Assembly (NCBI GenBank): GCA_005882335.1
Contig: VBAP01000004.1
Coordinates: 1-55,684 of the forward strand
Direction: 5' to 3'
DNA from: Candidatus Segetimicrobium genomatis
GTDB lineage: Bacteria > Sysuimicrobiota > Sysuimicrobiia > Sysuimicrobiales > Kaftiobacteriaceae
DNA length: 55,684 nt
Shown: positions 9,603 to 38,175 of the stretch, piece by piece
Layout: each line of letters begins with the position of its first letter
Numbering within the stretch: position 1 is the first letter of the stretch
Position numbers and translations under genes: made by a program
The notes under the pieces: model-generated
What the model was told of the DNA's origin: nothing
The model's database searches: none
What the model saw: the letters and a program-made list of their open reading frames with translations, nothing else

Positions 9603-9757
9603 ACCATGACCTCCTCACGGCATTTCCAGCATTCACCGGAACGCTCCCCTGGCAGAGAGTATTCCATCGGGATTATACCTCGCCGGGCGTGAGCCAGACA
9701 GCGCGCATCATACCGGACACGAGGGAGGAGCGGACGTCCCGGGGAACTGTTCTCCTC

Positions 9758-10918
9758 ATGCACGGCGCGATCCGGCTCGGGCGCATCCTGGGCGTCCCCA
9801 TCGGCGTGAACTACACCTGGTTCATCGCGCTGTGGGTCCTGGCGTGGTCGCTGGCGGCCGCCTATTACCCGGCGCGGTTCCCCGGGTTCCCCGCGTCGAC
9901 GTACTGGACGATGGGGCTGGCCTCCACGATCCTGTTGTTCGCGTCGGTGATCATCCACGAGTTGGGACACGCCGTGGCGGCGCGCCGCTACGGGATCCGC
10001 ACCCGCAGCATCATCCTCTTTCTCTTTGGCGGGGTCGCCCAGATCGCGAGGGATCCCCCCACACCACGCGCCGAGCTCGTGGTGGCGGCGGCGGGACCCC
10101 TCACCAGCCTCGCCCTGGGTGGACTGTTCGCGATCACGCATCCCCTCGCCGCCGGCAGCGCGCTTGGAGCAATCATCGCATATCTGGCCTGGGTCAACGC
10201 GGGGCTGGCCGGCTTCAACCTGATTCCAGGTTTCCCGCTGGACGGCGGCCGGATGCTGCGCGCCCTCATCTGGCGGGCCACCGGCAGCCTAGAGCGCGCG
10301 ACACTGATTGCCTCGAGAACCGGCCAGGTCGTGGCGATGCTGCTGATCGCCGCGGGGGTGATACGCGCGTTCACCGGCAGCGGCATCGGCGGATTATGGC
10401 TCATCCTCCTGGGTTGGTTCATGGACACCGGCGCGCAGGGCAGCTACCAGCAGGCCCTGCTGCGGGAGGCGCTGGGGAAGGTGCGCGTGGGGGACATCAT
10501 GACCCGGGAGGTCCATACCATTGATCCCGGTCTCACGTTGGACCAAGCCGTGGCCGACTATTTCCTGCCGCATAAGCACGGGGGCTTCCCGGTGGTATGG
10601 GGCGACCGCCTGCTGGGTGTCATCACGCTGCACGACGTCAGAGATGTGCCCCGCGAGCGGCGGGCGACGGCCACGGTACGCGACGCGATGACACCGCTGT
10701 CCCGGCTGCGCACGGTGCGGCCCTCCGCGTCGGCGTACGACGCCTTCGTGCGCATGGCGCAGGATGGGATCGGCAGGCTCCTGGTCACAGACCCCGACGG
10801 AAGCCTGATCGGCATCCTTACCCGTAGCGATCTCCTGCACATGATGCGCATGCGGGTGGAACTCGAGGAGACTAGCGCAGAAAGGACAGCAGCGACGTCA
10901 GCGCGACGGCCACCGTGA
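9758..10918 (+). CDS. Site-2 protease (M50) with CBS domains
   Basis: HELGH, NLIPGFPLDGG, TM segments and two CBS repeats; start could be GTG 9689. Confidence 0.93.
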   Translation: MHGAIRLGRILGVPIGVNYTWFIALWVLAWSLAAAYYPARFPGFPASTYWTMGLASTILLFASVIIHELGHAVAARRYGIRTRSIILFLFGGVAQIARDPPTPRAELVVAAAGPLTSLALGGLFAITHPLAAGSALGAIIAYLAWVNAGLAGFNLIPGFPLDGGRMLRALIWRATGSLERATLIASRTGQVVAMLLIAAGVIRAFTGSGIGGLWLILLGWFMDTGAQGSYQQALLREALGKVRVGDIMTREVHTIDPGLTLDQAVADYFLPHKHGGFPVVWGDRLLGVITLHDVRDVPRERRATATVRDAMTPLSRLRTVRPSASAYDAFVRMAQDGIGRLLVTDPDGSLIGILTRSDLLHMMRMRVELEETSAERTAATSARRPP

Positions 10919-11399
10919 GCAACGCCGCGGCCGTGGGGAGACATCCGCGCCGCGTCTGGGACGACCCACCCGTGGACCGGCGCACCGACAGCCGCGTAGC
11001 CTTCTTGAAATGGTCCACCGCATCGCCGACGCGGCCCATCTGCTTGTAGAGAATCCCGAGATTCTGGTGGGCGATCGCATAGTCGGGATCGATGGCTAGC
11101 GCTCGCTCGTACGCGACCAGCGCTTCTGACAGCATCCCCTTTTCGCGGTACGCATTCCCAAGGTTGCTGTACGCAGGAGCGTAGGTAGGCCGCAGGCTCA
11201 GGGCTTTGGAGAACTCGGCAATCGCCTCGTCCAGCCGGCCCTGCTGCGCCAGAACGACCCCCAGCTTGCTTCGCGCAACCGCCGAGTCAGGAGCGGCTTC
11301 CAGCGCCTGGCGAAACGCGCGCTCGGCGGCGGCGTGCTCACCTGCCTGCAGGTGGCGCTCAGCCTCCTCAAGCAATTCCCTCGCTTCGCCCTCAGCCAT
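10872..11399 (-). CDS. TPR-repeat protein with C-terminal hydrophobic tail
   Basis: About 4 TPRs (AYSNLGNAY, AHQNLGILY) and tail LPTAAALLTVAVALTSLLSFLR; RBS GGAGTGG. Confidence 0.85.
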   Translation of the reverse strand: MAEGEARELLEEAERHLQAGEHAAAERAFRQALEAAPDSAVARSKLGVVLAQQGRLDEAIAEFSKALSLRPTYAPAYSNLGNAYREKGMLSEALVAYERALAIDPDYAIAHQNLGILYKQMGRVGDAVDHFKKATRLSVRRSTGGSSQTRRGCLPTAAALLTVAVALTSLLSFLR

Positions 11400-11495
11400 G
11401 CCGGTCTACGCCCGCACCGACACTTCCACTCCAGGCGGGGGGTCCCTCTCCGACCGTGGACGGAGGCCGTGGACGCGAGGCCTATAGTGTGACTG

Positions 11496-11559
11496 CGGAG
11501 CCACCAGGCCGCTAGTCCGGGCTTTTCAACCAGGTAAGCTAGGAGCGGCTTTTCGGTCG
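11496..11559 (+). repeat. 64-nt dispersed structured element, copy 1
   Basis: Ungapped match to 25264-25327 and 48386-48449; 43 of 64 positions invariant across the three. Confidence 0.85.
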
Positions 11560-11587: not shown

Positions 11588-12079
11588 TTAGCGATGACCG
11601 ACAGTCTCGGCAGCGCGCTCAGCAGACAGCCAGAGAGGCAGCACGTCGAAATCGTCCTCGTCCGCCGCCGACGCAACAGGTTCCCGCTCCAACGCCTCTG
11701 CGGCCACCAGCGCGGCCGCCGCGTTCTGCTCGCGGGGGATGAGCTCGACGCTGCTCCAGCGATATGCATTCAGCATGGCCTTCGTCTGCAGGTACGGCCC
11801 GATGAGGTCAGCTGGCACCTCCGCGTCGCCCCTGAGTTGCGCGACCATCTTCGGGTGCTCTGTAAGCACACGGATCCGCCGCACGCCTAACCGCTTCGCC
11901 GTCCACACGCCATGGAGCACGGCCCGGTAGGCGACGACGTCCGGTGACGCTGGTCTCAGTGTCCGGCCGACGACTCGCAGCGTCTGTCCATCGCTGTCGC
12001 GAATGACGACGCCCAGCGCTGCACGGCCGTTCCCTAACGCAATGCTGGTATAGATCTCCACTGCCTGCACCGGGATCAA
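11588..12079 (-). CDS. RNase HI-like fold protein with degenerate active site
   Basis: Aligns by eye to type-1 RNase HI (IYTSIA..G.AALGVVI; VAY; TEH; IPREQN.AA); TTG start with GGAGG RBS, overlapping the upstream stop. Confidence 0.8.
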   Translation of the reverse strand: MIPVQAVEIYTSIALGNGRAALGVVIRDSDGQTLRVVGRTLRPASPDVVAYRAVLHGVWTAKRLGVRRIRVLTEHPKMVAQLRGDAEVPADLIGPYLQTKAMLNAYRWSSVELIPREQNAAAALVAAEALEREPVASAADEDDFDVLPLWLSAERAAETVGHR

Positions 12080-12273
12080 GGCACCTCCAGCATCATCACC
12101 AGCAGGAGCAGACCTGCAATCATGAACATCTTTACCCCAATCAGGTCGCGGTCATCGGCGAGTCGCGCCCAGAGGTTCGTTCGCGGCCTCGACCTCTGAG
12201 GCGAAAGCAGCCTGGGCATCACGCGCAGCCTGCTGGCGGGGATTCCTCGGACGGCGACCGCGCGCACGCTCAT
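12076..12273 (-). CDS. Small protein with one C-terminal TM segment, coupled to lexA
   Basis: 65 aa; ATGA overlap with the lexA stop and TTGA overlap with the next gene; hydrophobic LIGVKMFMIAGLLLLVMML. Confidence 0.7.
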   Translation of the reverse strand: MSVRAVAVRGIPASRLRVMPRLLSPQRSRPRTNLWARLADDRDLIGVKMFMIAGLLLLVMMLEVP

Positions 12274-12899
12274 GCCTGTCCTCCCGCGTACCGCCGTAAC
12301 AGCCCCACGACCTTGCCGATGATCTCGAACTCGCCGCGAATCGGAGCGTAGCGGGGGTTCTCCGGCACCAGGTACGGCTGCCGCCCCTCATACGCCAGCC
12401 GTTTGACGGTGGCCTCCTCACCGATCAGCGCCACGACGATCTCATCCGGATCGGCGGCGGGCTGCGAGCGGACGATCACCATGTCGCCATCGTAGATGCC
12501 GGCATGGATCATGCTGTCCCCGCGGACGGTCAGGAGGAAGCAGTTCTCGTCGTGCCAGCCGACCATCTTGCGGGGAACGGGGATCATGTCTTCGACGTTT
12601 TCCTCTGCCAGGATCGGGACGCCGGCGGACACGCGGCCGACCAGCGGCAGATGTGCGACCTGATCACCGCTGGGAAGGATCCGTTTGTCCAGCACCTCCA
12701 GCACGCGCATCCGATCGCCGTCTCGCTTGACATATCCCTTGCGCTCCAATGCCAGCAAGTGCTGGTGGACCGTGGACGGCGACCGCATCCCCAGCGCCTG
12801 ACCGATCTCGCGAACAGACGGGACGATGCCGTTGCGTCGAATAGACGTGGCAATGTGCTCCAAGACCTGCCGCTGCCTGTCTGTCAGTGGCGTAGCCAT
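12270..12899 (-). CDS. lexA: SOS repressor LexA
   Basis: N-terminal wHTH (LTDRQRQVL), cleavage site SAG, GDSM serine and TVK lysine. Confidence 0.97.
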   Translation of the reverse strand: MATPLTDRQRQVLEHIATSIRRNGIVPSVREIGQALGMRSPSTVHQHLLALERKGYVKRDGDRMRVLEVLDKRILPSGDQVAHLPLVGRVSAGVPILAEENVEDMIPVPRKMVGWHDENCFLLTVRGDSMIHAGIYDGDMVIVRSQPAADPDEIVVALIGEEATVKRLAYEGRQPYLVPENPRYAPIRGEFEIIGKVVGLLRRYAGGQA

Positions 12900-12919
12900 C
12901 GCTTTCACCCCCATCAACT

Positions 12920-12948
12920 AATATAGCGAACGTATGTACGAATATCAA
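12920..12948 (-). promoter_or_regulatory. lexA promoter
   Basis: TTGATA (12948-12943), 17 nt, TATATT (12925-12920). Confidence 0.75.
12927..12940. promoter_or_regulatory. LexA box (CGAAC-N4-GTTCG type) in the promoter spacer
   Basis: CGAAC-GTAT-GTACG, one mismatch to the Gram-positive consensus. Confidence 0.8.
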
Positions 12949-12981: not shown

Positions 12982-12995
12982 AGAACATTCGTGCG
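12982..12995. promoter_or_regulatory. Second, weaker LexA box
   Basis: AGAAC-ATTC-GTGCG. Confidence 0.55.
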
Positions 12996-13174: not shown

Positions 13175-14101
13175 TTAGCTCGAAGTGAGGAGCCGGGAAA
13201 TCAGCTGCGGCTCGGCGTTACCACCGCTGACGACTGCCACAGCATGGACACCGGAAGCGCGCATCCCTAAAGCAGCTGCTACCGCCACTGCGCCGGACGG
13301 TTCCACGATGATGTTGCCGTCGGCCAGCAACCGCCGGACGGCGGCCAGGGTCTCTTCGTCGGATACGGCCATGAACTCGTCTACGTACTGGTTCGCGATC
13401 TCCCAGGTGAGCTTGCCCGGCGTCAGTACGCGCAGCCCGTCCGCAATCGTTTCGGCCTGCTTCAGCACCACCGGCTTCCCGGCTGCGCGCGAGCGGGCAA
13501 ACCGAGGGGCGCCGGCGGGTTCGACGCCGACCACGCGGGCGGTCGGCCGCAGCGCTCTGACGGCCGTCGCTACTCCGGAAATCAAGCCGCCACCGCTCAC
13601 CGGGACAAGCACCACCGTGACCTCAGGATGCTGCTCCACAATCTCAAGGCCGGCGGTGCCCTGACCGGCCACGATCAATGGATCGTCGAATGGCGGCACA
13701 TAATGCAACCGGCGCCGTTCCGCCAGCTCCTGCGCATAGGCGACACGTTCCTCTGAATAGCGACCATAGCGGATCAGTTCGGCGCCGAACGCCGTAATCG
13801 CCTGGGCCTTAGCGGACACCACGTCCTCCGGCACCACCACGACGGCCCGCAAACCCAGTGTCTTCGCCACATACGCGACGGCCTTGCCATGATTGCCCGA
13901 CGAGGCCGTCACGACGCCGCCCTGGCACTGCTCGGGCAGGGCGAGCACATGGTTGAAGGCCCCGCGGGCTTTGAACGAGCCGGTCACCTGCAAACTCTCC
14001 AGTTTGAGCAGCGGCCCTCCCGGCAGGGGATGCAACGGCGTGCGGACGACGTAGGGGGCGATTCGCGCGCGGGCGGCGTGGATATCGCGCAGAGAGACCA
14101 C
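13175..14101 (-). CDS. Threonine/serine dehydratase (PLP)
   Basis: LKLESLQVTGSFKARGA, SSGNHG and VPVSGGGLISG; start re-picked at GTG 14101. Confidence 0.9.
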   Translation of the reverse strand: MVSLRDIHAARARIAPYVVRTPLHPLPGGPLLKLESLQVTGSFKARGAFNHVLALPEQCQGGVVTASSGNHGKAVAYVAKTLGLRAVVVVPEDVVSAKAQAITAFGAELIRYGRYSEERVAYAQELAERRRLHYVPPFDDPLIVAGQGTAGLEIVEQHPEVTVVLVPVSGGGLISGVATAVRALRPTARVVGVEPAGAPRFARSRAAGKPVVLKQAETIADGLRVLTPGKLTWEIANQYVDEFMAVSDEETLAAVRRLLADGNIIVEPSGAVAVAAALGMRASGVHAVAVVSGGNAEPQLISRLLTSS

Positions 14102-14102
14102 G

Positions 14103-14195
14103 GAACTAACGGAAACGCGGGATCGCGGGATCGCGGGAACAACTGCTACAAACGCGAATAGGCGCGTTTCCGCGTTTCCCCGTTCCTGCGTTCCC
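14103..14195. repeat. Inverted tandem-repeat cassette, 8-mer GCGGGAAC family
   Basis: Left CGCGGGAT CGCGGGAT CGCGGGAA; right GCGTTTCC GCGTTTCC CCGTTCCT GCGTTCCC; after the gcvPB stop. Confidence 0.88.
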
Positions 14196-14200
14196 AACAG

Positions 14201-34339: not shown

Positions 34340-34619
34340 TGTGGATAACCTGGGCACAACCAGGCCCCGTATCCACAGATTCTCCAGAAAGTAACGGCGC
34401 TGTGACGAGCGCACACTCCCAAAACCGCGGGTAGCCCGCGTGGCGGCGCTGAGCCGCCAGCCCTCCGTTCAGACTATCCACAGCATTTTTCATTGCTGTG
34501 GATAACTCCGCGGAGGCGCGCGGATGGCGGATACCATCGCAGCGCCGCGCACCTGTGTTCGGCAGGAAGCATCTCCCGGCTCCACGAACATCGGGTCACT
34601 TCCCCAGGGGCTATCCACA
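34340..34619. other. oriC part 1: upstream DnaA-box cluster
   Basis: TTATCCACA on minus at 34340-34348 and 34497-34505; GTATCCACA 34369-34377; CTATCCACA 34474-34482 and 34611-34619. Confidence 0.88.
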
Positions 34620-37065: not shown

Positions 37066-38175
37066 ATGTGGGTAAGTTGTCCACAGACGGCGTTGCTAAA
37101 GGCAGTACAGATTGTAGGACGAGCGGTTTCGACGCGCACGACGATGCCCATTTTAGGCTACATCCTAATGGAGACCCAAAAAGACGGTATCAAACTGACG
37201 GCGACCGATCTGGAACTCGCGATGCAAGTCGAGGTGGCGGCTGAGGTGAAACAAGGCGGTCAGCTGACGTTGCCGGCGCGGATTCTGAACGAGATTGTAG
37301 GTAACTTGCCCGTGGCAACGGTCGAGATTAAGGCGCCGGAAGGAAGTACGCAGGCGGAAATCAGTTGTGAGACGAGCCACTTCGAGATCCTGGGTTTGCC
37401 CGCGACTGATTTTCCCGCCTTGCCGCGTGCGGATGGAGACGCCGTAGGCGAAGTCGATGCCGATGTCGTGCGCATGATGATCAACCAGACCATTTTTGCC
37501 GTTTCCGCGGACGAAACGCGGCCGTTCCTAACCGGAGTATACGCGGTGCTAGATGGTGCGGAGGCCAAGTTCGTCGCAACGGACGGCGGCCGCCTGGCAT
37601 TACGAAAAGTGCAGCTCCCGCGGGCCGCGCGGCAGAAGATCGGGGTGATCGTGCCGGCCAAGGCGATGCAGGAGCTGGCGCGCGCGCTGGCGGGCGTGGA
37701 GGGTGCGGTGCAGCTGGGGATGGCCGACAACCAGTTGGTTTTTACCGTGCCGGGTCTGCGCGTGTACTCCCGGTTGATCAGCGGACAGTTTCCGAACTAC
37801 CAGCAGGTCATCCCGCAGGAGTTTAAGCAACGTATTCGCGTCCAGACCGAGCGCCTGCTGCGCGCCGTACGCCGCGCCTCAATCACGGCGCGGGACTCGG
37901 CGAATGTCGTGCGGCTGCGGGGTGAGGGCAAGAAGCTGACGCTGACGTCGAATACGCCGGAGGTCGGCAAAGCGCGTGAGGAAGTAGAGGTTACCGCCGA
38001 GGGAGAGCCAATCGAGGCGGCGTTCAATGCGCGGTATCTGATGGACTGCCTCAACAACATCGAGGCAGATGAACTGTTCTTCGAACTCACCGGGCCGCTC
38101 AGCCCCGGGGCGATCCGCCCGGCCCACCACAGCGATTACGTCTACGTTCTGGCTCCGGTGAGAGTGTACGCATAA
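37066..38175 (+). CDS. dnaN: DNA polymerase III beta clamp
   Basis: ATDLE, ATDGGRLA, GQFPNYQQVIP and AFNARYL; GGAGG RBS. Confidence 0.97.
   Translation: MWVSCPQTALLKAVQIVGRAVSTRTTMPILGYILMETQKDGIKLTATDLELAMQVEVAAEVKQGGQLTLPARILNEIVGNLPVATVEIKAPEGSTQAEISCETSHFEILGLPATDFPALPRADGDAVGEVDADVVRMMINQTIFAVSADETRPFLTGVYAVLDGAEAKFVATDGGRLALRKVQLPRAARQKIGVIVPAKAMQELARALAGVEGAVQLGMADNQLVFTVPGLRVYSRLISGQFPNYQQVIPQEFKQRIRVQTERLLRAVRRASITARDSANVVRLRGEGKKLTLTSNTPEVGKAREEVEVTAEGEPIEAAFNARYLMDCLNNIEADELFFELTGPLSPGAIRPAHHSDYVYVLAPVRVYA

Follow-up and report, generated by a model that had tools for sequence, protein, structure and literature searches.

A catalytically degenerate RNase H-like protein with a conserved LPLW tail motif is encoded in the lexA operon of CSP1-3 (Sysuimicrobiota) bacteria

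The third cistron of the lexA operon in a 55,684-nucleotide stretch of DNA, hereafter the window, from a soil bacterium of the uncultivated phylum CSP1-3 (Sysuimicrobiota) encodes a protein of 163 amino acids (aa) that has the fold of ribonuclease HI and lacks three of its four catalytic carboxylates. A conserved four-residue motif, LPLW, lies in its disordered tail and matches the core of the sequence by which ImuB binds the beta sliding clamp. We tentatively propose that the protein is an SOS effector, a dead RNase HI that would be loaded on the clamp via its ImuB-like LPLW and act there as a checkpoint or fork adaptor, possibly recognizing structures such as primers or R-loops; as a whole, this proposal is possible rather than probable. 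SOS regulons beyond the model phyla are barely charted. Members of CSP1-3/Sysuimicrobiota can exceed 20% of soil communities (PMC11604079). An earlier note on this DNA, made from the sequence alone, had presented the protein as undescribed, and the literature that we searched contains no paper connecting LexA or SOS, in this phylum, with a protein of the RNase H type.

The operon and its control region comprise the following features:

13175-14197, minus strand: threonine-dehydratase-like gene.
12982-12995, minus strand: distal LexA-box-like site CGCACGAATGTTCT, one mismatch to CGnAC-N4-GTTCG.
12920-12948, minus strand: promoter of the lexA operon, with -35 box TTGATA (12948-12943) and -10 box TATATT (12925-12920).
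12927-12940, minus strand: proximal LexA box CGTACATACGTTCG, inside the 17-nt promoter spacer.
12270-12917, minus strand: lexA, first cistron (TIGR00498, 6e-61; PF01726, LexA_DNA_bind, and PF00717, Peptidase_S24).
12076-12273, minus strand: orf65, second cistron, a 65-aa small membrane protein, with an ATGA overlap with lexA.
11588-12079, minus strand: the 163-aa RNase H-like gene, third cistron.

The earlier note had described the three genes as chained by overlapping stop and start codons under a promoter with a LexA box, and both statements hold. According to the ORF list and the sequence, lexA and orf65 have ATGA in common, while orf65 and the 163-aa gene have TTGA in common, TTG being the start of the latter. 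A GGAGG stands 4 nt 5' of this TTG, within the last codons of orf65, CTG-GAG-GTG; these codons also supply GGAGGTG, the Shine-Dalgarno sequence for the gene that follows. Within the chain, neither a promoter nor a terminator was found. A consensus scan 5' of lexA returned one promoter-like site, TTGATA-17-TATATT, which is sigma-70-like, and the box in its spacer is of the Cheo type, one base off the Gram-positive Cheo box CGAAC-N4-GTTCG. The listed TTG start of lexA at 12917 directly adjoins the -10 box, which makes the ATG at 12899 the probable true start; this ATG is preceded by GGGGGTGA, and translation from it would yield a LexA of 209 aa and leave a short leader.

Conservation sets the proximal box apart from its surroundings: it is kept in the promoter spacer of all 28 CSP1-3 lexA loci compared, and the surrounding intergenic DNA diverges. 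The entire architecture, TTGAT[AG]-..CGTACATA[CT]GTTCG..-TATAnT, recurs in 28 of 28, and a distal box with a perfect GTTCG half in most related loci. With a LexA operator in the promoter that would drive it, the 163-aa gene classes as a predicted member of the SOS (LexA) regulon, its induction by damage being predicted from the conservation of the operator. A scan for further LexA boxes gave 17 one-mismatch matches over the whole window against 26 expected by chance; without enrichment over chance, we discarded the additional candidates and consider only the two sites at the lexA promoter convincing. One perfect match to the degenerate LexA-box pattern, CGCACCTGTGTTCG at 34548-34561 (plus strand), is located close to the origin region, about 240 nt upstream of a GHKL/wHTH gene that is followed by dnaA. 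Given the lack of enrichment over the window, it may be due to chance.

Related loci were collected with a family profile (16, from species-representative genomes) and with a wider profile (7), and two more were added by a LexA-based scan and four as metagenome contigs. The records that carry names are 'Bacillati bacterium ANGP1', 'Armatimonadetes bacterium 13_1_40CM', Ca. Fervidifonticultor, Calidihabitans and Thermofontivivens, the last three of which belong to Sysuimicrobiota, formerly CSP1-3 (PMC11604079). The earlier note had proposed co-occurrence with lexA as a check on its idea, and the linkage is indeed conserved: the order lexA, small membrane ORF, RNase H-like gene is found at 27 of the 28 loci with upstream DNA present. 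The three genes are adjacent at 16/16 loci of the first set, 6/7 of the wider-profile set and at further loci besides, usually with overlapping or near-overlapping junctions. In the most divergent case (L029, LexA 58% identical), all three genes are retained, the small ORF with a length of 59 aa, next to different downstream neighbours. By comparison, none of 62 lexA loci from phyla other than CSP1-3 contains the RNase H-like gene.

In Ca. Thermofontivivens primus (L018), the gene directly follows gcvPB, with neither lexA nor the small ORF at the locus. It has a promoter of its own with the same architecture, TTGACA-TACAAACAAATGTTCGC-TATAAT (L018 3915-3998), whose spacer holds a LexA-box-like site, CAAAC-N4-GTTCG. 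This locus offers what appears to be the best single argument for conserved LexA control rather than mere synteny. The converse arrangement also exists. Among 18 CSP1-3 lexA loci, the RNase H-like gene is present in 13, absent from three, reduced to a remnant in one and rearranged in one. The three loci that lack it (L042, L044 and L045; 3600-4000), including that of the original CSP1-3 MAG, form one subclade with lexA, the small ORF and a gene for a tetratricopeptide repeat (TPR) protein, and at the locus with the remnant (L046, 3518-3910) only a C-terminal piece, ...VYADLPLWENS, is left between lexA and the TPR gene. Either situation could reflect a real deletion or an error of MAG assembly. 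Since it has been lost in one subclade, the RNase H-like gene is an accessory, dispensable component of the locus.

The protein itself divides into a folded domain and a tail:

11687-12079, minus strand: RNase HI-fold domain, residues 1-131 (PF13456, 5.8e-15; AlphaFold2; Foldseek).
11642-11686, minus strand: acidic linker EPVASAADEDDFDV, residues 132-146, disordered in the AlphaFold2 model and variable among relatives.
11630-11641, minus strand: docking motif L147-P148-L149-W150, conserved in alignment A2 and, as [LMV]PL[WF], in 84 family sequences.
11588-11629, minus strand: C-terminal extension LSAERAAETVGHR and stop, variable, with a low-confidence helix at 149-161.

The RNase H-like fold assigned in the earlier note is confirmed by the structure prediction that it had called for. 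The Pfam family PF13456 (RVT_3) matches at 55.7 bits against a gathering threshold of 21.6 (E 5.8e-15) and is covered from position 10 to 123 of 123, whereas the NCBIfam RNase HI equivalogs score 26-35 bits and do not reach their cut-offs of 140-326. With HMMER, the N-terminal domain of M. tuberculosis Rv2228c (3hst) is matched at 1e-8 in pairwise comparison and at 5e-15 with the family profile. An AlphaFold2 model built from a 22-sequence family alignment has a pLDDT of 86.9 and a pTM of 0.82, with pLDDT above 90 across residues 10-130. Its elements (E6-16, E19-28, E33-41, H46-63, E68-73, H76-82, H90-104, E108-113, H116-131) follow the RNase H order, a five-stranded sheet with helices A, B, D and E. 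The top Foldseek matches are all type-1 RNases H, with 3hst and 4e19 superposing over about 130 residues at E about 1e-12, an rmsd of 1.3-1.4 Å and a TM score, normalized to the target, of 0.86-0.91. Both lines agree that the 163-aa protein has the RNase HI fold.

All the best solved relatives are short type-1 enzymes: the Rv2228c N-domain (3HST), LC11-RNase H1 and Halobacterium RNase HI. With the short enzymes of the RVT_3 type (3HST, 4E19, 3U3G/4H8K and Sulfolobus tokodaii RNase HI) the protein shares fold, size and the lack of a basic protrusion, at 25-27% identity and an rmsd of 1.3-1.8 Å, and it keeps the core residues G23, Y51, Q81, G84 and N119. It departs from them in three respects: other residues stand in place of the D, the E and the last D of the catalytic DEDD set, and neither TNN nor GNPG is left; the helix YLQTKAMLNAYR, invariant and specific to the family, is present, as is a disordered tail with LPLW; and it is predicted to be under LexA control.

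The catalytic positions were mapped in three independent alignments, with HMMER in pairwise and profile comparisons against 3hst (Rv2228c-N) and LC11 RNase H1 (3u3g/4h8k). They are occupied by S12 (12044-12046), A50 (11930-11932), E74 (11858-11860) and A123 (11711-11713), the same S, A, E and A that the earlier note had read by eye; the intact set of carboxylates that it had held up against its own reading appears in none of the three. The pattern extends to all 84 family sequences examined. Site 1 is S or A (D/E in 0/84), site 2 is A or S (E in 0/84) and site 4 is mostly A (D in 0/84, E in 2), while a carboxylate stands at site 3 in 81/84 (E in 57, D in 24). A MAFFT alignment of the 84 moves site 1 by one residue (T11 vs S12), with no carboxylate either way, and for this site we followed the HMMER alignments.

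Substrate contacts have gone the same way. ATNNVAEY of Rv2228c aligns with ASPDVVAY in the window's protein, and family-wide the canonical TNNVAEY has become S-x-[DE]-V-[AV]-[AS]-Y. The TNN substrate motif is missing from all 84 relatives, and the canonical contacts TNNxAEY, the GNPG loop and DS are replaced throughout the family. The earlier note had suggested that the protein binds RNA:DNA hybrids or the clamp. With TNN and GNPG lost, the first half of this suggestion is weakened on sequence grounds, and we keep it as a possibility because the domain is basic in the window's sequence (pI 10.1); the likeness to a clamp motif, in contrast, has been strengthened.

Databases name proteins of this family 'ribonuclease HI' or 'reverse transcriptase-like'. 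The first label is unsuitable because features that define a functional type-1 ribonuclease H, namely the DEDD carboxylates, the TNN motif and the score on the NCBIfam equivalogs, are all lacking, and by these sequence features it is a systematic mis-annotation. About 68 relatives, with identities of 50-99% and all from metagenomes or MAGs, came from a word-indexed search, and an exhaustive profile search added a wider ring of proteins of 145-170 aa at about 30-45% identity. Among the collections searched, the family was seen only in CSP1-3 (Sysuimicrobiota). The gene evolves with a dN/dS of 0.11-0.37, typically about 0.16-0.2, which denotes purifying selection; this is comparable to the TPR neighbour and above lexA (0.05-0.10). 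Alignment A2 has 31 invariant columns, including the helix YLQTKAMLNAYR (residues 96-107), which is specific to the family and not conserved among active RNases H. Because of this selection and these invariant columns, the protein is a stable pseudo-enzyme and not the product of a decaying gene. A defence or phage origin was rejected, PADLOC and PHROG searches having given no match for the 163-aa gene or orf65 and the locus lying among housekeeping genes. Also set aside were several high-scoring multi-domain proteins from the search of representatives (P0076, P0077, P0079, P0084 and others), in which scores are summed over tandem RVT_3 repeats; some carry an N-terminal SAP domain, and they provide no hint on function.

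The most constrained part of the tail is its docking motif. Alignment A2 shows no variation at P148, L149 and W150 and almost none at L147, and [LMV]PL[WF] occurs in 84/84 family members, those of about 30% identity included, usually with D/E one or two residues upstream. In the model, it falls in a region of low pLDDT. The linker that leads to it has a pLDDT below 50 at residues 136-142 and of about 57 over the block, and varies in length and sequence among relatives. The peptide that carries the motif in the window's protein is ADEDDFDVLPLWLSAER. The stretch DDFDVLPLWL given in the earlier note as the end of an acidic tail is there, but it is not the end, since 13 residues, SAERAAETVGHR, follow; likewise, within the acidic tail with a clamp-like motif that the note described, conservation falls on LPLW and not on the acidic run. 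The 13 residues after LPLW are variable within the window's subfamily, and in distant relatives, which end ...DLPLWAAAS, the extension is replaced by AAAS-COOH or similar.

Ligands of the beta clamp follow the general consensus QL[SD]LF, and the L-x-L-aromatic pattern of the tail fits it. The loose resemblance to QL(S/D)LF that the earlier note had seen proves closer than stated, the invariant LPLW being the core of the ImuB sequence QLPLW(G). In the mycobacterial protein, the beta-clamp motif is 352-QLPLWG-357 and has been validated experimentally (PMC10421592; PMC11791113; bioRxiv 10.1101/2020.12.14.422803), and a mutant with AAAAGG in its place behaves like an imuB deletion and no longer forms clamp-dependent foci (PMC10421592; also PMC11791113). 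The family has x-L-P-L-W, a candidate clamp motif, in a low-pLDDT tail, but the Gln at the first position of clamp motifs is missing; position -1 is variable, and is D in distant relatives. Motifs of four residues are degenerate, and this part of the tail is also similar to the C-terminal peptide of FtsZ (D-I-P-x-F-L) or the tip of SSB (DDDIPF).

We suggest the following mechanism, in which the protein would work by docking and not by cutting. The 163-aa gene would be the third, translationally coupled cistron of an autoregulated lexA operon; given the overlaps and the LexA-box promoter, its product would be expected upon cleavage of LexA after DNA damage. The protein would consist of three working parts: a basic, folded RNase H-like domain, a disordered acidic linker and the invariant LPLW, which would insert into the hydrophobic cleft of the clamp as the QLPLW(G) core of ImuB does. 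After damage, clamps at stalled forks would carry this inactive RNase H module. It could serve there as an adaptor, with a partner bound to its strongly conserved helix 90-107, or it could exclude other clients from the clamp, as a competitor with a checkpoint-like role. By analogy with ImuB, such docking into the clamp cleft after SOS induction, with the dead module as fork adaptor or competitor, is plausible, if still somewhat short of probable. It predicts that the protein binds DnaN in a manner that depends on LPLW, and the cognate clamp sequence is available in the window, where dnaA is followed by dnaN, recF and gyrB:

37066-38175, plus strand: dnaN (TIGR00663, 3.8e-91).

If true, the protein would be a bacterial, non-catalytic counterpart of the PCNA-tethered RNase H2. 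It would also form a new class among the non-catalytic SOS effectors, next to ImuA/ImuB and UmuD, as a variation on the theme of inactive enzyme folds that serve as SOS scaffolds. The nearest parallel is ImuB, the dead Y-family polymerase of the SOS mutasome, which combines an inactive fold, LexA regulation and a QLPLW(G) motif outside the folded domain (PMC10421592, PMC11791113). Unlike the 163-aa protein, ImuB has a Y-family polymerase fold, a Gln at position 1 of its motif, and RecA-NT and ImuB-C modules. No ImuA or DnaE2 partner is encoded in the flanks of about 3-4 kb around each locus. UmuD/UmuD' and SocB are clamp-binding proteins that slow or block replication; the proposed role as a small SOS- or stress-induced occupant of the clamp cleft resembles theirs, without any relation in sequence or fold.

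LPLW and the linker might instead dock on another partner: the TPR protein, RecA or LexA (as a DinI-like modulator), or the proteins that interact with SSB (as an SSB-tip mimic). Acidic-plus-hydrophobic tails are typical ligands of TPR or OB-fold proteins, and a TPR gene lies near at hand, next to a protease gene:

10872-11399, minus strand: TPR protein with a C-terminal membrane anchor (TPR families at 1e-32).
9689-10918, plus strand: M50/CBS-domain protease gene, adjoining the TPR gene.

The TPR gene, whose product ends in a hydrophobic anchor, …CLPTAAALLTVAVALTSLLSFLR, lies directly 3' of the RNase H-like gene in most loci; its synteny with the lexA block extends across the phylum, and a single contig from the metatranscriptomes connects the 3' end of the 163-aa gene with the TPR start. 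However, loci that have lost the RNase H-like gene retain the TPR gene, L029 has the former without the latter beside it, and the scan of the window found no LexA box in front of the TPR gene. It would seem to be a syntenic neighbour whose position does not imply membership of the operon, and it could be a membrane stress module unrelated to SOS. The tail itself also speaks against such partners, as distant relatives share only D/E-x-LPLW and not the acidic run, and as the motif is not C-terminal, as an SSB tip must be; it is never so in the family, and we dropped SSB mimicry as a main model. Docking on one of these partners is, in our judgement, unlikely.

A second alternative to the clamp is division. 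Here the tail would mimic the C-terminal peptide of FtsZ; by competing for the membrane tethers or regulators of FtsZ after damage, and in concert with the small membrane protein, the RNase H-like protein would delay division. In FtsZ, a disordered acidic linker leads to this peptide, whose consensus is D-[IV]-P-x-F-[LM]-[RK]; in the family, such a linker likewise leads to [DE]-x(0,1)-[LM]-P-L-W. The predicted co-transcription with a small tail-anchored membrane protein recalls the SOS division inhibitors of other phyla. The product of orf65 has a basic N-terminus, a conserved DDR motif and one C-terminal transmembrane (TM) helix ending LEVP(W); its homologues (L001-L029) total 36-100 aa, with an N-terminus of variable length and a core, W-x-R-F-x-DDR-x-L-x-x-K-[TM]-LEVPW, that is conserved among related loci and ends LEVPW-COOH. 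Its dN/dS is 0.18-0.32 in informative pairs, and Pfam, NCBIfam, PADLOC and PHROG returned no match for it. Like the lexA-linked division inhibitors YneA, SosA, SidA, ChiZ and DivS, orf65 is small and single-TM and follows the same genomic logic; these inhibitors are not homologues of the RNase H-like protein and, to our knowledge, none of them is coupled to a dead RNase H.

In its details, the motif fits FtsZ less well than the clamp. FtsZ has a variable residue between P and F and I/V before P, whereas the family has an invariant L149 and L/M before P, so that the clamp pattern L-x-L-[FW] is the better fit, and the residues after W are not basic. The two genes are also separable, since L018 lacks the small ORF and L042, L044 and L045 keep orf65 without the RNase H-like gene. 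We know of no role of the RNase H fold in division. Mimicry of FtsZ is distinctly unlikely on this evidence.

The gene could instead be a lineage-specific passenger with no role in the damage response, kept beside lexA by inherited synteny and expressed through read-through. The block of gcvP, the threonine dehydratase-like gene, lexA, the small ORF, the RNase H-like gene and the TPR and M50/CBS genes is syntenic phylum-wide; as the flanking housekeeping genes are syntenic too, adjacency to lexA alone could be inherited, and the loss in one subclade is what a passenger might show. Against this, the stop/start overlaps suggest obligatory co-expression with lexA, and two single cases point the same way: the copy in L018 keeps its LexA-box-like promoter apart from lexA, and L029 retains the three genes amid different downstream neighbours. 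We hold the passenger reading to be quite improbable.

That the protein is still a nuclease or other nucleic-acid enzyme, with a non-canonical site around the retained E74/D74, is very improbable indeed: site 3 keeps its carboxylate, conservation extends to E87, N119 and Q81, and the window's protein has a basic domain, but two-metal catalysis in RNase H requires the D-E-D(-D) cluster, of which three positions are small or neutral across the family (site 4 aside, with its two E), the TNN motif that contacts the RNA 2'-OH is gone, and the equivalog scores fall far short of their cut-offs.

Expression data touch the locus at a few points. The sequence was found in soil metagenomes and in only three small, untreated soil metatranscriptomes. 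Two contigs from the RNA libraries lie on the 163-aa gene, at 11809-11927 and 11945-12095, with 1-2 mismatches and a depth of about 2-5; the second spans the junction of orf65 and the 163-aa gene, at a low depth at which DNA carry-over is possible. Most lexA reads in these metatranscriptomes come from relatives of roughly 91% identity. The traces support presence in RNA libraries and nothing more. A metatranscriptome contig of a related strain omits 54 nt of the DNA between the RNase H-like and TPR genes, at 11485-11540, with both flanks matching, which is an indel polymorphism and hints at one RNA (or DNA) molecule spanning both genes.

One MAG, DASXUC01 (isolate SMAG_U4708), contains two complete copies of the block of threonine dehydratase, lexA, small ORF, RNase H-like and TPR genes, on separate contigs (L007 and L010). 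Because the two copies differ in sequence, they suggest that this bin mixes two related organisms.
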